A DNA stretch of 64,000 bases from IMG/VR virus record IMGVR_UViG_3300043399_000524, positions 1 through 64,000 of that record; one strand, written 5' to 3'. Shown piece by piece: positions 79-26,914 of the stretch (position 1 is the stretch's first letter; the number at the start of each line of letters is the position of its first letter). The notes beneath the pieces were generated by a model that saw only the letters and a list, made by a program, of their open reading frames with translations, did no database searches and was not told the origin of the DNA. The translations under genes were made by a program, and so were the position numbers. Source of the DNA: a virus.

Positions 79-3000
79 ATGATGGCAATTAAAATAGGTG
101 GTAATACAGTTGTTACAGACAACTGCAACTTACAAAACATAAAAAACCACAATACAAATAGTACGAATTTCTTTGCCGGCGTATGTGCTGGACAAAATAA
201 CAATGCGTCAGGTATAAACAATGTAATGATAGGATCCTGTGCTGGCCAAGCTAACACTAGTGGAAATAACAATACATTTATAGGATTACAAGCAGGTCAG
301 TGTAACACCACCGGCTCACACAACTTCTTTGCTGGCCAGTGTGCTGGTTTTAGTCTTACCACGGCTTGTTTTAATATTTTTATAGGAAGAAGAGCCGGGA
401 TATGTAATACAGGGTTTTCTAATATTTTTCTGGGCGACCGCGCCGGCGAAGCAAATACAAATGCTGGACAAAATAACTTTATTGGTGCTTATGCTGGTAA
501 TTGTAATACTACTGGTACAGTAAATAATTTCTTTGGTAATTATGCTGGACAAAGTAACACCACTGGCTCAAACAATAATTTCTTTGGTTTCCTTGCAGGT
601 CCTGCAAACACTACGGGCAACCACAACAACTTCTTTGGTGAGTATGCCGGTCGTAACAACACAACTGGCAGCTGTAATGTTATGATAGGAAGTAGAACTG
701 GGCGTTACTCTGTATCTGGTGCATTTAATGTATTAATCGGAAGATTAGCAGGTAGCCTAACGAACGGGTGCAATAATATTATGGTGGGAACATATGCCGG
801 ACGCTGTTCTTCATCTGGAAGCAACAACACCTTCATTGGTCAGTGTGCTGGTTTCTGCAACACCACCGGCTCTAACAATTTCTTTGCTGGTCGTTGTGCT
901 GGTTATTGTAACACCACTGGCTCTAACAACACCTTTATTGGTTGCAATGCTGGCTTCTCAAATACCACAAGTTGTGATAATGTATTCATAGGTAATAGCG
1001 CAGGCGCCGGCAGAGTAAACAGATATAACGTATTCATCGGATCACTTGCCGGAGCTTGTGCCACTGGTGGGCTTATAGAATGTAATATCTTTATAGGAAG
1101 ATATTCTGGTTATTGCGCTATTGGTGGTTATGAAAACTTCTTTGCAGGTGGACTTACAGGTTATAGAAACGGTGGTAGTTCTAATACATTCATTGGTTGG
1201 ACAGCTGGTACAAACAATACGACTGGTTCCTACAACACATTCATTGGTCAGTCTGGTGGATATTGTAACTCAACAGGTAGCTCTAATACTTTCATAGGTG
1301 CGAGAGCAGGATTCTTTAACTCCACCGGCAGCCACAATAACTTCTTTGGTTTTAGAGGTGGCTACTGTAACACCACCGGCTCTAACAACTTCTTTGCTGG
1401 GCAATGTGCCGGTTACTGTAACACCACCGGCTCTAACAACACCTTTATTGGTAATAACGCAGGTTTAAACAATTCTAATTCTTCTAATAACGTGTTTATT
1501 GGAGAAAATGCAGGTCGATGCACAATTGGTTTTAGCGGTAGAGGACATAATAACTATATTGGTCAAAATGCCGGATGCAGAAATACATTCGGTCGCTATA
1601 ATAACTTCTTTGGTTGCTCGGCCGGCCGTTCAAATACTGAAGGTAGAAATAATAACTTTTTTGGCGAGTATGCCGGAGCTTGCAACACTACCGGTGGCTT
1701 CAACAACTTCTTAGGTCCATTTTCTGGATATTCAGGTACTACTAGTTTTAATAATAATTTTATGGGTGATAGTAGTGGTTATTACAACACTACTGGTAGT
1801 TATAATAACTTTTTTGGTTTACGAGCTGGATTCAGAAATACTACTGGCTGTCACAATAATTTCCTAGGATGTAGCGCCGGTTACTGTAACACCACTGGCT
1901 CACACAACTTCTTTGCTGGATTGTGTGCTGGTTATCGTAACACTGATGGCATCAATAATACCTTTATTGGGTGCAATGCTGGATGTGCAGTGGTCTCTGG
2001 TGTAAACAACTTAATTATCGGTAGCTATGCAGGTACTGCTGGCTTACAAAACATGATTCACTTACGAGCAGGTACTAACTGCTTGCAGGTCTGTGGTGCC
2101 GGCGTACTAACAGTCAATGGTGCTGCTGTTGGTGGTTCAAGTGCGTTTAATATCTGCAACTCAACAAATATTGTAAGCTGTATAGGTGGCACAGGTGGTA
2201 CTGGTACACATAACTTCTTTGCCGGTCAGTGTGCAGGTTTATGCAACACCACTGGCTCTAACAACTTCTTTGCTGGCCTCAATGCTGGCCAATCAAACTC
2301 AATCGGTTCACATAATTTCTTTGCTGGATTCTGTGCTGGGCGCGCCAACACTACCGGCTGTTACAACACCTTTATTGGCAAACTAGCTGGCTACAATAAT
2401 ACCAACGGTGGTCGAAATTTATTTGCTGGACTATGCGCCGGCTCTTATAATGTTACGGGTGTTGATAACATTGTTATTGGTTTAGGTGGTATGTCTTGCT
2501 CAATAACAGGTTATAACTATTATACGAATGCCGGCGGCGGAGGCTATATACCAGGAGCTTATGATTCTTTCCAAACTTGGACAGGTACTACCTTAGGGTG
2601 TACGATTAGTTTATTTACATTTTATCAAGGTGGTTATATAACCAAGGTACAATTAACCAGTCTTACACAGTTAGAAGGATATGGTGAATACGCCTGGGGT
2701 TTATGTGGGTACACTATATCTTCCGCTTCCGGTAATGCTTATTCAGAACCAATATACGGACTCAGTGGTAGTTCAGGATCTAATAATATTATATTAGGAA
2801 ATTCCGCAGGTAAATATAATGTAGCGAACAACAATTTCTTCGCTGGTTGCTGTGCTGGTTATTGTAATGTTTCAGGTTGTAACAATACTTTTATTGGTAG
2901 CGGTAGTGGCCGATCAAACGTTTCTGGTAATAGTAATGTCTATATCGGCTTTAATGCTGGAACAAACCGCATATGTGGTAGCCATAACACTTTCATTGGA

Positions 3001-4716
3001 GAGTGTGCCGGTGGAAATTTTAATTCAAGTCAAACTAATTGCAATAATACTTTTATAGGTTTGCGGGCTGGTTATTATGCTCGAGGTTCTAGTAATACTT
3101 TGATAGGTAATGAAGCTGGATGTAATGTCTTAGGTGACAACAACATTTATATAGGTTTTAATGCCGGTAAATGTGCCGGTACAAGTAGTAACAACAACTT
3201 TTTTGGTTTTTGCACCGGCTTTAGACAATCTGGCGGCGGCGGCAATAATTTCTTTGGTTGCTGTGCTGGTGTATGTAGTACCAGTAGCAGTAACAACAAC
3301 TTCTTTAGTCAATCTGCCGGCCGTGAGACTACCACCGGTAGTAACAACAACTTTTTTGGTTCTTGCGCAGGTCTTACCAATACTACCGGATGTAACAACA
3401 ACTTTTTTGGTTGTAATGCTGGTTTTTCTAACACTACTGGTAACTTCAACACCTTTATTGGAAATTATGCTGGTAGAGCTAACACTAGCGGTGCCAACAA
3501 CACCTTTATTGGCGACTGTGCTGGTAGGTGCAACACTACTGGTTGTTACAACTTCTTTGTTGGGCAGTGTGCTGGTTGGAGAACATCTACAGGTTGTCAC
3601 AACATTTTTATTGGTCGTAGCACTGGCCGCTGTAACACCACTGGAGCTAACAACACTTTCTTTGGTGGTTATGCTGGCTGGCAGAATACCACTGGCAGCA
3701 ATAACTTCTTTGTCGGGTGCGCGACCGGCGGCTCGAACACCACCGGCTCATACAACTTCTTTGCTGGTCAGTGTGCTGGTTTTTCTAACACTACTGGTAA
3801 CTTCAATACCTTTATTGGTAACCAAGCAGGTTATTCAAACACAATTGGCACCGGCAACTTCTTTGCTGGTCGATGTGCCGGTTATAGTAACACTGCAAGT
3901 CACAATATTTTCATGGGTATTCTAGCTGGTTGGCGCAACACAACTGGAACTCTTAACGTTTTCATAGGTCGATATGCTGGTTGCTGCAATACAGGAGGAC
4001 AAGGCAACATCTTTATCGGACAATACACCGGCCGTGTTAATACAACTGGAAACCAAAACAACTTCTTAGGTCGTCAAGCTGGTTGCGCCAACACAACCGG
4101 GTGCGCCAACAACATTTTTGGGTGGAGTGCTGGTAGCAGCAACACTATTGGTAACAGCAACAACTTCTTTGGTCAAAGTGCCGGCTTATGCAACACTAGT
4201 GGTAGCTGTAACACGTTTATTGGCCACTATGCCGGATGCTGCAACACCACCGGTTTAAATAACTTATTCTTTGGTTGTTGTTCGGGTGTAGGTACGATTG
4301 GACTTGCCAATATCACTACAGAATCTAACCGTATCATTATGGGTAACAATGCTCATACATGTGCCCAAATACAAATTGCATGGACAACTGTTTCCGATAT
4401 TCGTGACAAGTGTATTTTTGGACGAGTACCACATGGTAAGGGATTCTTGCAAGGTCTTGAAACAATTGAATACGCATTTAAAGACCGCGAAACAGGTTGC
4501 ATCACAGATCCAGAAGGCAAGCGTAGATATGGATTCAGTGCTCAAAATATTCTAGTTGCTGAAGGTGATAAACCAGTTATTGTATCTACTGAAAACCCAG
4601 AAAAATTACAATTAACTGCGGAATACATTATCCCTGTATTAGTCAATGCAGTTAACGAGTTGTCTGCTGAGGTCGATGATTTGAGAGCAAGAATTATTGC
4701 GCTAGAAGCAAAATAA
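79..4716 (+). CDS. Long tail fibre/adhesin-like repeat protein with C-terminal intramolecular chaperone (peptidase S74-like) domain
   Basis: 1545 aa; 17-aa G-x-x-N-x-F-x-G-x-x-A-G-x-x-N-T-T repeats; WTTVSDIRDK (S-D-x-R-x-K) autocleavage motif and terminal coiled coil. Confidence 0.8.
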   Translation: MMAIKIGGNTVVTDNCNLQNIKNHNTNSTNFFAGVCAGQNNNASGINNVMIGSCAGQANTSGNNNTFIGLQAGQCNTTGSHNFFAGQCAGFSLTTACFNIFIGRRAGICNTGFSNIFLGDRAGEANTNAGQNNFIGAYAGNCNTTGTVNNFFGNYAGQSNTTGSNNNFFGFLAGPANTTGNHNNFFGEYAGRNNTTGSCNVMIGSRTGRYSVSGAFNVLIGRLAGSLTNGCNNIMVGTYAGRCSSSGSNNTFIGQCAGFCNTTGSNNFFAGRCAGYCNTTGSNNTFIGCNAGFSNTTSCDNVFIGNSAGAGRVNRYNVFIGSLAGACATGGLIECNIFIGRYSGYCAIGGYENFFAGGLTGYRNGGSSNTFIGWTAGTNNTTGSYNTFIGQSGGYCNSTGSSNTFIGARAGFFNSTGSHNNFFGFRGGYCNTTGSNNFFAGQCAGYCNTTGSNNTFIGNNAGLNNSNSSNNVFIGENAGRCTIGFSGRGHNNYIGQNAGCRNTFGRYNNFFGCSAGRSNTEGRNNNFFGEYAGACNTTGGFNNFLGPFSGYSGTTSFNNNFMGDSSGYYNTTGSYNNFFGLRAGFRNTTGCHNNFLGCSAGYCNTTGSHNFFAGLCAGYRNTDGINNTFIGCNAGCAVVSGVNNLIIGSYAGTAGLQNMIHLRAGTNCLQVCGAGVLTVNGAAVGGSSAFNICNSTNIVSCIGGTGGTGTHNFFAGQCAGLCNTTGSNNFFAGLNAGQSNSIGSHNFFAGFCAGRANTTGCYNTFIGKLAGYNNTNGGRNLFAGLCAGSYNVTGVDNIVIGLGGMSCSITGYNYYTNAGGGGYIPGAYDSFQTWTGTTLGCTISLFTFYQGGYITKVQLTSLTQLEGYGEYAWGLCGYTISSASGNAYSEPIYGLSGSSGSNNIILGNSAGKYNVANNNFFAGCCAGYCNVSGCNNTFIGSGSGRSNVSGNSNVYIGFNAGTNRICGSHNTFIGECAGGNFNSSQTNCNNTFIGLRAGYYARGSSNTLIGNEAGCNVLGDNNIYIGFNAGKCAGTSSNNNFFGFCTGFRQSGGGGNNFFGCCAGVCSTSSSNNNFFSQSAGRETTTGSNNNFFGSCAGLTNTTGCNNNFFGCNAGFSNTTGNFNTFIGNYAGRANTSGANNTFIGDCAGRCNTTGCYNFFVGQCAGWRTSTGCHNIFIGRSTGRCNTTGANNTFFGGYAGWQNTTGSNNFFVGCATGGSNTTGSYNFFAGQCAGFSNTTGNFNTFIGNQAGYSNTIGTGNFFAGRCAGYSNTASHNIFMGILAGWRNTTGTLNVFIGRYAGCCNTGGQGNIFIGQYTGRVNTTGNQNNFLGRQAGCANTTGCANNIFGWSAGSSNTIGNSNNFFGQSAGLCNTSGSCNTFIGHYAGCCNTTGLNNLFFGCCSGVGTIGLANITTESNRIIMGNNAHTCAQIQIAWTTVSDIRDKCIFGRVPHGKGFLQGLETIEYAFKDRETGCITDPEGKRRYGFSAQNILVAEGDKPVIVSTENPEKLQLTAEYIIPVLVNAVNELSAEVDDLRARIIALEAK
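160..4300 (+). repeat. 51-nt/17-aa coding tandem repeats (roughly 70 degenerate copies)
   Basis: e.g. tgcaacaccaccggctctaacaa near 856 recurs 51 nt later near 907; 33-nt exact duplicate tgctggtttttctaacactactggtaacttcaa near 3417 and 3775. Confidence 0.9.
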
Positions 4717-22455: not shown

Positions 22456-23556
22456 ATGAGTTATCTATTTACAAGTGAATCCGTGTCCGAAGGACACCCT
22501 GATAAAGTAGCTGATGCAATCAGCGATGCAGTTTTAGATTTGGTAATGGCAAAAGAAGATAGTTCACTGCGCTGTGCATGTGAAACTCTTGTTACTACTA
22601 ACCGTGTTGTGTTGGCAGGAGAATACAAAGGTATTCTACACGACGAAGAAGTTGAAAGTGCTGTACGCAAAGTTATCAAAAATATCGGTTACGAACAACA
22701 AGGTTTCAATTGGCAAACAGTTGAAATCACGAACTTACTACACGGACAAAGTGCAGATATTGCACTAGGAACAGACAGTTTCGGTGCAGGAGACCAAGGC
22801 TTAATGTTTGGTTATGCATGTGATGAAAATGACAATCAAATGCCCAGTGCAATTTATTGGTCTCACCGTATCGTTGAAGCACTTTCTCACGCTAGAAAAA
22901 ATGGCGTATTGACTTGGTTAGGTCCCGATGCCAAAAGTCAAGTTACATTTGAATACGACGAATTGAATCGTCCTATACGTATTGCTAAAGTAGTATGTTC
23001 TACACAACATTCCGAAACAGTTGACATTGAAACAGTTAGGCGTACAATAGAGTCAGTAATTCGTAATATACTACCTGGCAAATATGTTGATAACAATACT
23101 GAATTTTATATTAATCCTACTGGCCGCTTTGTTATCGGCGGCCCTGATGGGGATACTGGGCTTACTGGTCGCAAAATCATTGTAGACACTTATGGAGGGT
23201 ATAGTCCTCATGGTGGAGGGGCATTCTCGGGTAAAGACCCTACTAAGGTTGATCGTAGTGCCGCCTACATGATGCGCTATATTGCTAAGAACATTGTAGC
23301 GTCAGGACAAGCACCATGGGCTACGTGTCAAGTTAGCTATGCAATTGGGTTGAAAGATCCGATGAGTTTTTATGTCGAAACGCAGGATACTAAACTTAGT
23401 CGTTATTTAACAGACTGGATTAAGAATAACGTAGACTTGACACCAAAAGGAATTATTGATAAATTTAAACTATTCAGACCTTTGTATACAAAAACCACAA
23501 ACTATGGACATTTTGGTAAATCATATTTACCTTGGGAACAAGTTGATTTGTTTTAA
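22456..23556 (+). CDS. metK: S-adenosylmethionine synthetase
   Basis: FTSESVSEGHPDK, GAGDQG, GGPDGDTGLTGRK, GGGAFSGKD, YGHFG. Confidence 0.97.
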   Translation: MSYLFTSESVSEGHPDKVADAISDAVLDLVMAKEDSSLRCACETLVTTNRVVLAGEYKGILHDEEVESAVRKVIKNIGYEQQGFNWQTVEITNLLHGQSADIALGTDSFGAGDQGLMFGYACDENDNQMPSAIYWSHRIVEALSHARKNGVLTWLGPDAKSQVTFEYDELNRPIRIAKVVCSTQHSETVDIETVRRTIESVIRNILPGKYVDNNTEFYINPTGRFVIGGPDGDTGLTGRKIIVDTYGGYSPHGGGAFSGKDPTKVDRSAAYMMRYIAKNIVASGQAPWATCQVSYAIGLKDPMSFYVETQDTKLSRYLTDWIKNNVDLTPKGIIDKFKLFRPLYTKTTNYGHFGKSYLPWEQVDLF

Positions 23557-24029
23557 TGGAAGAAAAGCCAAATTCAGCTAAAGGCAGAGAGAGTTATGAC
23601 AGTGAAGCTGGTAACTCTCTTATCCATTTCTTTAATAGAAATGTAACCCCTTACGCCACTGAATCTGGCGGTCCAAAGTTTGACCTTATTCCTATCGAAA
23701 AACAAAAAGACATTATGGTCAATGTAGCAAGACTACATGCCCAACAAGAATATGATAGGATAATGGAACTAGTTGCAGTATTACAAAAACAAGCAGCAGA
23801 TATTAAACGAAGGCTTGACATAACCGACATGGTTCATCAAGCTAAATACGATTTTCAGATATATCATGGACAATGTTATTGGTTGTTATATGACCGTAGA
23901 AAAGATTGTACACGATTAACATTACATGGTCCAAATGAATGGTTTACGGGAAAACCTGAAGAATATGAATATATCTGTAAAGTTAAATGGTTAGGTGACT
24001 ATACTTGGTTAGAGGTAAATGATGAATAG
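23556..24029 (+). CDS. Hypothetical protein (DUF2452-like); ends in TAG
   Basis: Coupled to metK; stop gaa-TAG at 24027-24029 overlaps next gene start; family call from memory only. Confidence 0.55.
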   Translation: MEEKPNSAKGRESYDSEAGNSLIHFFNRNVTPYATESGGPKFDLIPIEKQKDIMVNVARLHAQQEYDRIMELVAVLQKQAADIKRRLDITDMVHQAKYDFQIYHGQCYWLLYDRRKDCTRLTLHGPNEWFTGKPEEYEYICKVKWLGDYTWLEVNDE

Positions 24030-24585
24030 AAGTCCAGAAAGAGGGTCATTTCATATTGAGTGCGAACTTAAACGGGTAGAATCCGGTGAAAAAACCTTAG
24101 AAGATGCCCAGCCCATGATTGATTTTTATAAATCATGGGAACAGCAACGACAAGAAATGGAAGCCACCGACGAGTGGAAGAAGGATAATATGGAATATGA
24201 CCTTCGTTCTACTAAATGGATCTGTGATAAAGCCAAAGCTAGTGCAGGGTATGCACAGAACATCTATGCTGCAATTTGTAACAATGAATTTGTAAAAAAT
24301 GATGTATGGCCTATACTAACCGATAAACGATGGGGCGCTAGTTGGCGTAGTGCGGGCGGTATTGTTGCTAATATGATAGAAGAAGGTGACTATATTGATT
24401 GGTATTGCTCTGGTATTCGGGGGGAGGTAGATGATGAAGAATATCACAGTATGTCAAAAGAACAACAAGAATATTATGTTTATACTAAAACTCACTTTGT
24501 GGGTGAAGGTATAGTTACTGATGAAATACGTGAGGATTTGTTAAAGTTGGGTTGGATTGTAGTACCTAACGAAAATGAAGAATAA
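24019..24585 (+). CDS. Hypothetical protein
   Basis: Long ORF (SWRSAGG..YIDWYCSG), overlapping start. Confidence 0.6.
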   Translation: MMNRSPERGSFHIECELKRVESGEKTLEDAQPMIDFYKSWEQQRQEMEATDEWKKDNMEYDLRSTKWICDKAKASAGYAQNIYAAICNNEFVKNDVWPILTDKRWGASWRSAGGIVANMIEEGDYIDWYCSGIRGEVDDEEYHSMSKEQQEYYVYTKTHFVGEGIVTDEIREDLLKLGWIVVPNENEE

Positions 24586-24630
24586 GTACTGTTAAACATC
24601 ACAAACGGGCGCACCGAGATAAATAACTAT

Positions 24631-25248
24631 ATGAAAAGTAAATATGGTCTACCAGTCGTTTGTTCTCATTGCGGGGAAATGTTTTTAACTAAACCTAGAT
24701 TTTTAGAATATTGCTCTACACCATGTAAAAATCCAATAAACCGAAAAGGAAATATTCCTTGGAATAAGGGTAGAGAGATGACTGCGGAACAAAAAGCTAA
24801 ATTAAACATAGAAGGTTTGAAAAAAGGTCGTGGTTGGAACAAAGGACTACCTAATGAAAAACAACGAGAAAAATGGACTGGATCAAATAACCCCAACTGG
24901 GAAGGTAAACTCAATAATCTTAGACCAAAAAAGATAGTAAATGACGAATTTGTTAAATACAAAAGAGAATGCAAAAAACAGACACACAGAACAAGATATG
25001 CTATGAAAAGGGAGGGTCTAATTCCCGATAATATCGGTAAAAGGAAAGATCAATATCAATTAGATCACATCATTCCTTTTAAACAAGGATACGAATTAGG
25101 AATAGATCCAAAAATCATTGGAGGTAAAAGTAATCTCCAATGGATTCTGGGGGAAGAAAACAGGACGAAATGGGATCGCTTCCAACCAGAAGAAATTATT
25201 AACAAAGTATTAGGAGAATACAATGGCTTACAGCGACCGCGTAATTGA
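24631..25248 (+). CDS. Putative HNH-type homing endonuclease with Zn finger and PWNKG repeats
   Basis: CSHC..CSTPC, PWNKG/GWNKG, YQLDHIIP...NLQW...N; overlaps iscU start by 26 nt. Confidence 0.7.
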   Translation: MKSKYGLPVVCSHCGEMFLTKPRFLEYCSTPCKNPINRKGNIPWNKGREMTAEQKAKLNIEGLKKGRGWNKGLPNEKQREKWTGSNNPNWEGKLNNLRPKKIVNDEFVKYKRECKKQTHRTRYAMKREGLIPDNIGKRKDQYQLDHIIPFKQGYELGIDPKIIGGKSNLQWILGEENRTKWDRFQPEEIINKVLGEYNGLQRPRN

Positions 25249-25612
25249 CCATTATGAAAATCCAAGAAATGTAGGATCGTTCGCCAAGGATGAAGCGCAT
25301 GTCGGCACCGGGATGGTTGGTGCTCCGGCATGCGGTTAGCTGGGCGATGTTATGAAACTACAAATCAAAGTAAATCCAAAAACAGGAATTATCGAAGATG
25401 CCAAATTTAAAACATATGGGTGCGGGTCGGCTATTGCTAGCTCAAGTCTTGTCACTGAATGGGTCAAAGGGAAAACACTTAACGAAGCTGCCGGACTCAA
25501 AAACTCTCAAATCGCAGAAGAACTTGCACTCCCCCCAGTCAAAATCCATTGCTCAATCCTCGCGGAAGACGCCATCAAAGCCGCAGTAGAAGATTACAAA
25601 AAAAAGCATTAA
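25223..25612 (+). CDS. iscU: Fe-S scaffold IscU with in-frame TAG at codon 39 within a 9-nt insertion (recoded gene or pseudogene)
   Basis: MAYSDRVIDHYENPRNVG...APACG*LGDVMKLQI...GCGSAIAS...PVKIHC; both halves in one frame; SD taggag at 25211-25216. Confidence 0.85.
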
Positions 25613-25692
25613 CCGATTTGCGATAGATACAGTGCCGGCATTTTCCCAAAAAACGATAAAGAATAGCACCTTTTGTATATAATTATATTCAT

Positions 25693-25765
25693 GCGCTGTT
25701 CTCAATGGTTGAGTAGGAGCCTCTAAAACTCTGAATCCCGGGTTCGATTCCCGTACAGCGCACCA
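25693..25765 (+). tRNA. tRNA with CUA anticodon (amber suppressor), 73 nt including encoded CCA
   Basis: Acceptor GCGCTGT/ACAGCGC + A73 + CCA; D arm CTCA/TGAG; anticodon arm GGAGC-CT[CTA]AA-ACTCT (CTA 25723-25725); T loop TTCGATT. Confidence 0.8.
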
Positions 25766-25780
25766 AATATAAATAACATA

Positions 25781-25930
25781 ATGAAACTACCTTTTATTGG
25801 ATTAATGGGAGTAGGAAGCGACAACATGCTTTATACTCCTAGCGGAGAAGCTCTATTCAGAGCGCCCGAATGGGCTGCGTGGCGCATCCAGCGCATTCAA
25901 CATTGGATTGCACAAAAAACTTGGAGTTAA
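25781..25930 (+). CDS. 49-aa hypothetical protein, apparently leaderless from a late box
   Basis: TAAATA 25770-25775 + 5 nt + ATG; MKLPFIGLMG...QKTWS*. Confidence 0.5.
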   Translation: MKLPFIGLMGVGSDNMLYTPSGEALFRAPEWAAWRIQRIQHWIAQKTWS

Positions 25931-25935
25931 TTAAA

Positions 25936-26535
25936 ATGGCATAGATTGAATTTGATTGTAAGGATATAGTGTTTCACTTCAACAAGAAACATTTAGAAGA
26001 TCAGACTATTCCCATGTGGGTCTTAAAATTTCATGGCGAAACGTACTATGTGAATCATGTGGAATGCAATGTTCCCTGGTCTACTAAAGAGACAATTGAT
26101 AATCCACATACTAAAGGTTCTATCAAAGTCAAAGACTGTTTATTGCAGATTGACGAGAACAACGAAGCCAAAATCTCACCTATCACAATAACAGACAAAG
26201 CACGAATCCGTAATGCCAAGAAAGGTATCACCCGTGTAGTAGTCAGTGAAAAAAATTGGGGAGGAACTAAGTTTAGAAATCTTCTCAAAGAAAAGAGTAT
26301 CAAACATGGTCCTATCAAAAGTATAGGTGGCGCATGTACAACTACATTCTATGTCACTGACATTTACAACGAACAGGATGTAACTTACCTTGCTCTAATG
26401 TTAACTGATACAGACTTTAGAAAACTCATGCCCAACGAAGGATATTACAGGATGTATGATGACCCAAAGTATCAAGGGACCAGCGATATCGATTTGGATG
26501 CAATTGACTGGTCCGACGATGACGAGGATGACTAA
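25936..26535 (+). CDS. Hypothetical protein with in-frame TAG at codon 3 (MA*IEFDCKDIVFHFNKK...)
   Basis: SD ggag 25923-25926, ATG 25936, TAG 25942-25944, in frame with the GTG-started ORF at 25969. Confidence 0.65.
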
Positions 26536-26542
26536 ATACTAG

Positions 26543-26914
26543 ATGCGTATCAATGAAATACTAACTGAAAGTTCGGATGTAGTTACTCTATATCACGGAA
26601 CATGCCCTGAATCTGCTAAAATACTGTTAGCAAATGGTTGGCAACCTAGGTCAGCAAGCCCAGGAGCGAACATGGGACAATCACAATACCTGTATCTAAC
26701 AACAGAACCAGAAGATGCGTTATGGTTTGCACAAGAAAAGGGTTGTGATACCGTATTGAAAGTTAGTAATGTTCCAATGTCTATACTCAAAGTAGACCCG
26801 GAAGATGGAATCGGTGATACTGTTTATGATGAACTACATTCAAGTAGCGGTGCACCTGGCAAAGTAGTTGCCATCAGACCATTGGGTAAAGAACATTTTT
26901 CAATTGTCCGATAA
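26543..26914 (+). CDS. ADP-ribosyltransferase-fold-like protein with capsid-targeting-like N-terminus
   Basis: MRINEILTE start; LYHGT...G..P...YLYLT...A..FA pattern. Confidence 0.5.
   Translation: MRINEILTESSDVVTLYHGTCPESAKILLANGWQPRSASPGANMGQSQYLYLTTEPEDALWFAQEKGCDTVLKVSNVPMSILKVDPEDGIGDTVYDELHSSSGAPGKVVAIRPLGKEHFSIVR

Follow-up and report, generated by a model that had tools for sequence, protein, structure and literature searches.

A putative amber-gated gene beside a phage tRNA and a nuclease-linked stop-codon insert in iscU: two proposed, probably unrelated recoding devices in a freshwater phage

Introduction

The subject of this paper is a tRNA with a CUA anticodon and two nearby genes, iscU and a gene named P0002 here, each of which has an in-frame TAG. 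They lie in a window of 64,000 nucleotides (nt), the whole stretch of DNA analysed, which is positions 1 to 64,000 of the virus record IMGVR_UViG_3300043399_000524 of IMG/VR. Several described systems also place a stop codon inside a gene. The gene for release factor 2 (RF2), prfB, is autoregulated through an in-frame UGA and a +1 frameshift and thereby senses its own product. T4 gene 60 is the main known case of programmed ribosomal bypass, and the bypass cassette formed there with MobA was reportedly treated by Bonocora and colleagues in 2011. Short hops of a tRNA over a stop between matched codons, the 'stop-hops' of laboratory constructs in E. coli, are said to have been described by Weiss and colleagues in 1987 and by O'Connor and colleagues in 1989. 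The closest precedent for the iscU locus is the T4 cassette of the MobA homing endonuclease and the 50-nt translational bypass of gene 60 (Manning and Atkins, bioRxiv 10.1101/2022.08.31.505936). Recoded phages, among them crAss-like and Lak phages, read TAG as Gln ('code 15') with suppressor tRNAs of their own, and 26-71% of their genes have in-frame stops (bioRxiv 10.1101/2021.08.26.457843).

The window is the first 64 kb of a linear phage contig of 139,307 bp from a freshwater metagenome. The contig is about 39% complete (CheckV), and such statements as 'the only tRNA' or 'the only two TAGs' apply to its 139 kb. The reading favoured here, with fair but far from full confidence, is that two unrelated recoding devices adjoin in a region of accessory genes. 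One would consist of the tRNA and a gene gated by it, P0002; the other would be an insert in iscU that travels with a putative nuclease gene and is hopped over by the ribosome.

The putative gated gene and its tRNA

The first device comprises the following features.

Positions 25693-25765, plus strand: tRNA with anticodon CUA, an encoded CCA and a compact D arm without nucleotides 8-9 (Rfam, ARAGORN -ps).
Positions 25781-25930, plus strand: P0003, a small conserved open reading frame (ORF) of 49 amino acids (conservation in relatives).
Positions 25936-26535, plus strand: P0002, the putative amber-gated gene, 199 codons, with TAG at 25942-25944 as codon 3 (conservation).

A first-pass annotation, made from the window sequence by a model, had placed the tRNA 80 nt past the end of iscU and a gene with a TAG near its start 170 nt further on. 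Both placements, and the anticodon, are confirmed. The gene reads GGAG-N9-ATG GCA TAG ATT GAA TTT from 25936, so that its start is supported by a Shine-Dalgarno sequence, and it is open to 26535.

The early TAG is a conserved feature of this gene. Among 26 viral contigs that encode a relative of P0002 with 49-91% identity, 24 have the arrangement ATG-NNN-TAG behind a good Shine-Dalgarno sequence, at identities down to 56%, with the TAG within the first six codons; one of the 24 starts ATG TCA CAA CAA TAG. A CUA tRNA, found by ARAGORN or by the family model, lies upstream of the relative in 25 of the 26 loci, mostly 30-850 nt away. The short contig L016 has no tRNA in its 10 kb. The association extends to a cultured phage, Rhizobium phage RHph_I1_18 (L107 2474-2722, MN988519.1), whose P0002 homolog of 82 codons is without annotation in GenBank. 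It begins ATG AGT GAG TTC ATG TAG AAC GAA, with TAG as codon 6, and ends 12 nt before a tRNA annotated as tRNA-Pyl(cta). Where the TAG is missing, in the member L122/L123, the protein starts MVEIACKD and no tRNA is present within the loci of 2.5-4 kb. At L024 5322-5990, and likewise in L025, P0004, a gene of 165 codons and no known family with TAG at codon 6, comes after two tandem CUA tRNAs and is itself followed by a TAG-less P0002 homolog. Among these loci, then, the early TAG goes together with the CUA tRNA, and the possibility raised by the first-pass annotation, that TAG and tRNA might fail to co-occur in relatives, did not materialize for this gene.

The codons that follow the TAG vary as those of a protein do. 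Codons 4-26 differ mostly at synonymous positions, and E5, C8 and F13-K17 are invariant; at codons 12-17, 19, 20, 22 and 26 the 21 distinct sequences have synonymous changes only. No alternative start is conserved, because the codon after the TAG is ATT, ACT, ATA or AAA among members and 5 of the 21 sequences have GTC or GTA in place of the GTG at codon 12 that the ORF finder chose as start. Such a pattern of substitution marks the stretch just after the TAG as translated and under selection at the protein level. It bears directly on a different account, by which ATG-NNN-TAG is a two-codon minigene or upstream ORF, P0002 is made by re-initiation or from a non-AUG start, and the tRNA is a mere neighbour. 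ATT, a known rare start, does follow the TAG in 17 of the 21 distinct sequences, and the strong Shine-Dalgarno sequence would load ribosomes there anyway. However, ACT, ATA and AAA of the other members are not starts, and no other conserved start precedes Met27, even though codons 5-26 are conserved as protein. The CUA anticodon, moreover, is invariant in 22 diverged tRNAs beside the TAG, and the TAG-less homolog is without a tRNA. The minigene account is therefore very unlikely. A ribosomal hop at this TAG was also rejected, since no matching landing codon follows GCA-TAG or TCA-TAG.

The tRNA matches Rfam RF00005 with 33.9 bits, for a gathering score of 29. ARAGORN misses it at default settings and finds it at a lowered threshold (-ps), as it lacks nucleotides 8-9 and part of its D arm; the tRNA of the relative L020 has the same shape, without nucleotides 8-9 and with a short D arm. 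The anticodon loop, CUCUAAA, has seven nucleotides, with U33 and a purine at 37, and its UCUAA is invariant in all 22 aligned tRNAs of the family, which otherwise differ widely. This alignment of 22 members is 97.3% paired, and 16 of 19 pairs have compensatory changes, a number reached by none of 500 shuffles. The anticodon stems in the alignment are short: the consensus keeps only three pairs, and in many members C31 and A39 are mismatched or 27 and 43 do not pair. The reading of stop codons is reportedly favoured when the anticodon stem is shortened (PMC13092985). A scan for promoters and terminators around the tRNA gave no more sites than are found in shuffled sequences.

In the proposed mechanism, release factor 1 (RF1) would end P0002 after Met-Ala unless the phage tRNA inserts an amino acid at the UAG. 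Synthesis of P0002 would thus require an expressed and charged tRNA that wins the competition with RF1, and its extent would depend on the same conditions; the pair of tRNA and gene would act as a translational lock or sensor for one gene. Most likely, P0002 is made only when the tRNA reads the UAG; that the tRNA is expressed and charged and decodes this codon, and what the lock is for, we infer from the sequence comparison. The start 'MSQVEIGC' of P0007 was not used as a sign of Gln at the TAG, as it may be a code-15 translation.

P0003, between the tRNA and P0002, has 77-96% amino-acid identity in L001, L002, L015, L017 and L020, and its last codons hold the Shine-Dalgarno sequence of P0002. 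Other relatives are without P0003 and have the tRNA about 30 nt before the ATG. At 25766-25932, contigs of two sequencing runs have 16 nt (TTAACTTAAAGGAAAA) in place of P0003, which puts the tRNA directly before the gated gene, as in L021. Since P0003 can be swapped for 16 nt in these contigs, it is an optional part of the module.

The P0002 protein is predicted to have a beta-rich N domain of unknown fold and a C-terminal half that is ferredoxin/ACT-like. The AlphaFold2 (AF2) model has a predicted local distance difference test (pLDDT) score of 81.5 over its full length and of 91.4 in the N domain. Neither Pfam nor PHROG has a matching family, and Foldseek finds nothing in the PDB at E <= 0.001. 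In a wide structure search (VIA), residues 91-179 have generic ferredoxin/ACT-like matches only, with Z of about 7, and the N domain alone reaches a best Z of 3.9 and matches no solved structure. Only uncharacterised phage proteins were matched in BFVD, and no usable match was obtained in the ESM Atlas. A profile search returns 144 clusters, in which many predicted proteins begin at the internal Met27; gene callers therefore truncate the protein at the TAG. The lock would explain why annotation pipelines truncate or miss genes of this type. In two jumbo phages, Agrobacterium phage Atu_ph07 and Sinorhizobium phage Phosso (L108, L109), the N domain of P0002 forms the C-terminal half of a TAG-less protein with about 175 residues. 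Its gene lies two genes past one annotated as peptidyl-tRNA hydrolase and immediately precedes a metallophosphatase gene and an HNH gene.

The insert in iscU and the putative nuclease gene

The second device comprises the features below.

Positions 24631-25248, plus strand: gene for a putative free-standing homing endonuclease of 205 amino acids (indel relative to relatives; HNH-like motif by eye).
Positions 25223-25612, plus strand: iscU, an auxiliary gene for an Fe-S scaffold protein, with a 9-nt insert after Gly38 (NifU_N match).
Positions 25293-25337, plus strand: RNA hairpin whose 3' arm finishes in the take-off Gly codon (folding of insert versus insert-less alleles).
Positions 25334-25345, plus strand: candidate hop site, with take-off GGT at 25334-25336, TAG at 25337-25339, CTG at 25340-25342 and landing GGC at 25343-25345 (sequence).

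The iscU product matches NifU_N (PF01592) over residues 2-128 with 172.7 bits, and C37, D, C and C of the cluster site are present in its translation, although the Cys-Gly-Asp spacing is broken unless the insert is skipped. Compared with canonical IscU the gene has nine extra bases, in frame (Cys-GGT TAG CTG GGC-GAT), and the TAG at codon 39 (25337-25339) is where it had been placed initially. The interrupted motif is GAPACG-*LG-DVMKL, for GAPACGDVMKL in 81 relatives. Those 81 are the insert-free members of a set of 86 viral iscU loci; the other five have TAG TTA GGT, TAG CCT GGC or TAG CTG GGC. Variation inside the insert is restricted to the middle bases and the wobble position of the landing codon. 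The alleles with an insert are scattered across the iscU tree.

What accompanies the insert is the nuclease gene, which overlaps the start of iscU by 26 nt. Homologs with 66-69% identity lie directly upstream of iscU in all five loci with the insert and in none of the 81 without it (p = 3e-8). Comparison of otherwise collinear genomes shows the gene to be a clean indel, about 640 nt long, immediately before the iscU ATG. The 5' parts of iscU up to the insert have 84-99% identity among cassette alleles, while the 3' parts resemble local insert-less relatives, by up to 97%. On account of this linkage, of the co-conversion and of the clean indel, the insert tracks the nuclease gene and not the tRNA. 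The combination of an indel, scattered alleles and co-conversion up to the target is the signature of a putative free-standing homing endonuclease. The nuclease family has at least 307 clusters. By eye, the protein encoded in the window has an HNH-like motif (DHIIP...NL...N) and NUMOD3-like repeats; its only library match is PHROG 5104, of unknown function, and among the relatives one has PF07460 and one is named McrA by its source.

The nuclease gene gave access to 80 further iscU loci (L124-L203), in which the insert has different lengths: 7 nt in 30, 8 nt in 8, 9 nt in 15, 4 nt in two and 6 nt in one, while 19 have none. Nearly all of the 56 loci with an insert share one form, GGN followed by TGA, TAA or TAG, then 1-3 nt and another GGN. 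With lengths of 4, 7 or 8 nt, 40 of the 56 shift the frame, and the stop of the 7-8-nt ones can be any of the three. Because most of these sister inserts shift the frame and use TGA or TAA, they are beyond the reach of an amber suppressor, and to judge from their lengths and stops the family as a whole cannot be decoded linearly. A hop from Gly to Gly would restore Cys-Gly-Asp in every one. In L132/L133 a 7-nt insert is present without a stop (GGT TGT TGG A). Of the 19 insert-free loci, most belong to iscU subtypes with the motif DVLQL or DVLKL, while DVMKL is present in five identical ones.

The insert alleles also have an mRNA structure of their own. The 69-nt stretch at 25283-25351, which contains the hairpin, folds with -32.5 kcal/mol (z = -2.7), and insert-less alleles have no such fold. 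For a stretch of 52 nt that ends one base beyond the take-off codon, the median minimum free energy is -24.5 kcal/mol in 27 distinct insert alleles versus -12.7 kcal/mol in 77 distinct insert-less alleles (p = 1.6e-13). The Gly-Gly flanks, the stop after the first Gly and the hairpin are all kept across the 27 alleles, while the nuclease diverges to about 51% identity.

The proposed mobile cassette would consist of the putative homing endonuclease gene, the first 38 iscU codons, recoded into the hairpin, and the insert. By spoiling the nuclease target in the conserved stretch that codes for GAPACGDV, the insert would confer self-immunity, and protection against the nuclease is probably its role. 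During translation, with the stop in the A site, peptidyl-tRNA-Gly would detach from GGU, the upstream hairpin would re-form, and the tRNA would re-pair with GGC 9 nt further on, which would restore the canonical Cys-Gly-Asp loop. Probably, therefore, the insert is skipped by the ribosome through a Gly-to-Gly hop.

Self-immunity could also be all that there is to the insert. In that case the cassette would knock out a dispensable iscU, no full-length IscU would be made, and the intact flanks would reflect repeated homing into fresh alleles. The accessory nature of iscU, the fresh supply of intact 3' parts by homing, and the nuclease-linked loci in which the insert is evidently not obligatory all agree with such a selfish scar. 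A plain scar, however, needs neither the Gly pair, nor the stop after the first Gly, nor the hairpin, all of which persist in the 27 alleles, and the insert varies only in its middle bases and in the landing wobble. The scar is accordingly thought unlikely, and a hop over the insert is preferred.

One device or two

The first-pass annotation had joined both TAGs and the tRNA in a single local module that acts as a switch. In such a module the tRNA would read both codons, IscU would carry three extra residues (Cys-Gly-X-Leu-Gly-Asp), and both proteins would depend on the tRNA. Both TAGs are indeed in frame and less than 600 nt from the tRNA, the in-frame 9-nt inserts of the nuclease-linked family have TAG in 15 of 15 cases, and the tRNA, if active, has access to the iscU UAG in this phage. 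The distribution of the parts nevertheless argues against a common device. Large tRNA arrays are present in the four further contigs that share the 9-nt TAG insert, but no CUA tRNA was detected in these contigs, one of which is a genome of 349 kb rated complete, and no P0002 homolog was found in the four. Conversely, iscU is insert-free in nine of the ten loci that have both iscU and a CUA tRNA, and the window is the only coincidence; tRNA and insert show no association (1/10 versus 4/76, p = 0.47). In the relative L017 the gene order, iscU-tRNA-P0003-P0002, matches that of the window and iscU is intact. In addition, sister inserts have 7-8 nt and TGA or TAA, the insert goes with the nuclease gene, and three extra residues would land between Cys and Asp of the cluster-binding loop. 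A single amber module is thus quite improbable. The part of the earlier claim that concerns P0002 stands, in that its TAG and the tRNA co-occur in relatives, while the part that concerns iscU does not, in that the insert tracks the nuclease.

The gene order in the window is MetK, the DUF2452 gene, a gene for 188 amino acids, the putative nuclease gene (205 amino acids), iscU, tRNA(CUA), P0003 and P0002. MetK, DUF2452, iscU, the tRNA, P0002 and a zinc-ribbon gene are syntenic in several relatives, so the adjacency of the two TAGs is inherited gene order and not the mark of one module. In the preferred scheme of two devices, the nuclease cassette would have invaded an iscU that already lay beside the tRNA. 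An active tRNA may then decode the iscU UAG as well, in competition with the hop, and so lengthen IscU by three residues as a side effect and not by design. The candidate hop site in iscU is about 350 nt from the tRNA. In a stronger form of this coupling, the level of the tRNA would set both the synthesis of P0002 and the ratio of canonical IscU, made by the hop, to the IscU longer by three residues, made by read-through, and the pair would serve as a sensor of suppression strength. This is a speculative and rather doubtful extension. No description of a translational circuit of this kind, with a tRNA and a gated gene as a suppression sensor, was found for any virus.

Several points weigh against the scheme of two devices. 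The tRNA of the window is atypical and perhaps impaired: it has no nucleotides 8-9, mismatches at C49-U65 and C31-A39 and a score of only 33.9 bits. No consistent amino-acid class emerges from its similarity to 115 typed phage tRNAs, and its acceptor stem and discriminator do not fit Gln identity in E. coli. The upkeep of a tRNA for one client is odd; perhaps it serves mainly at natural UAG stops or in the 60% of the genome that the contig lacks. As for iscU, short hops over stops in laboratory constructs are inefficient, and the gene might simply be sacrificed. The exclusive use of TAG in the 15 in-frame inserts would also fit some use of read-through, and 19 nuclease-linked iscU loci do without an insert. 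Finally, searches of Pfam, NCBIfam and PDB profiles gave no match that would identify the nuclease as an HNH enzyme.

Genetic code of the contig and neighbouring genes

The two TAGs are not sequencing or assembly errors. Logan contigs of two runs from one freshwater sample, which may be the source sample of the window DNA, have no differences at either TAG, at a word depth of about 77x, and both TAG features are also present in independent contigs. A 'near' DNA search of phage records gave no match.

The contig, which has a GC content of 37.6% and nearly all its genes on the plus strand, uses the standard code. Open frames cover 91.6% of its 139 kb under that code, with no gain when TAG is read as sense, and TAG terminates 8 of 179 long frames. 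The observation that long genes elsewhere have no internal TAG holds throughout the 139 kb, where those of iscU and P0002 are the only in-frame ones. With two in-frame TAGs per 139 kb and no gain in open frames, genome-wide recoding of TAG as in 'code 15' phages was rejected. The suggestion of an early stage of code change is not borne out either, the gated gene being the only conserved client in 25-plus diverged relatives. No gene of the PTH2, RF-1 or glutaminyl-tRNA synthetase (GlnRS) type was found in the 139-kb record, which is about 39% of the genome.

When all TAGs were scanned by codon usage, the one in iscU was the sole convincing internal case on the coding strand. The scan also flagged a TAG at 4067, in an alternative frame inside the long frame 79-4716, which was judged to be probably spurious. 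A second scan of the contig, for a Shine-Dalgarno sequence, ATG, 1-12 codons, a stop and a long frame, returned for TAG P0002 and one weak case at 84571, with control counts of 0 for TAA and 1 for TGA. The weak case (G000:C1:84571-84759, outside the window) is ATG TAG with a frame of 61 codons that itself ends in TAG, and it sits in a stretch at 81-85 kb that is poor in long frames.

Two neighbouring genes have features of their own. The DUF2452 gene (23556-24029, plus strand) is one of the eight frames terminated by TAG, and if the tRNA read through it, the product would grow by nine residues up to a TGA. Directly 3' of P0002, an ORF of 123 amino acids (26543-26914, plus strand) has faint matches to the profile of the Exotoxin A catalytic (ADP-ribosyltransferase) domain, with E = 0.2, and to PHROG 6170. 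None of the 26 relatives has an equivalent of this ORF in the interval from P0002 to the zinc-ribbon gene, and it looks like a local insertion.

Comparison with known systems

A literature search of incomplete coverage found no paper on standard-code phages in which a single gene is locked by an amber codon and opened by a tRNA of its own, and none on short natural stop-hops in iscU. If the proposed lock is real, one cultured phage and upwards of 25 diverged ones keep a tRNA to open one early stop in one gene, which would amount to a natural single-codon switch of translation. For annotation, the lesson is that two in-frame TAGs beside a suppressor tRNA need not have a common mechanism.

The putative lock of P0002 resembles the code-15 phages in that a tRNA(CUA) is encoded by a phage whose host presumably uses the standard code, in that an in-frame TAG is proposed to tie expression to the tRNA, and in that TAG is rare as a true stop. 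Unlike those phages, it has one conserved client, with a single TAG within the first six codons next to the tRNA, and no release factor or GlnRS gene was found in the 139 kb. It appears as a fixed lock on one gene over diverged relatives rather than as a genome-wide change or an evident step towards one. With prfB it shares an early in-frame stop that lets the synthesis of a protein report on termination versus alternative decoding. The proposed effector here, however, is a dedicated tRNA, whereas prfB senses its own product by a +1 frameshift.

The iscU cassette has many features in common with T4 gene 60. In both, a short insert that cannot be translated moves with a nuclease gene, and there are repeated independent insertions at one site of a conserved gene. 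A take-off Gly codon has a stop directly after it and a matching landing Gly, an mRNA structure is present at the take-off site, and skipping would restore the protein. The gap is 4-9 nt instead of 50, however, and the target is iscU instead of a topoisomerase gene. The nuclease gene lies upstream of an unsplit gene, while the T4 nuclease splits its gene, and the hairpin is located 5' of the take-off codon and includes it, in which it differs from the T4 take-off stem-loop. Neither a long nascent-peptide signal nor an internal Shine-Dalgarno sequence is evident in iscU. In its matched codons around a stop and its proposed hop of a few nucleotides, the site resembles the laboratory stop-hops. 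If the proposed hops occur, the nuclease-spread inserts of 4-9 nt would offer many simple natural variants for the study of how ribosomes leave a codon and find one again. The laboratory sites, however, are engineered and inefficient, while the sites in iscU are natural, are conserved in dozens of alleles and have a dedicated hairpin.

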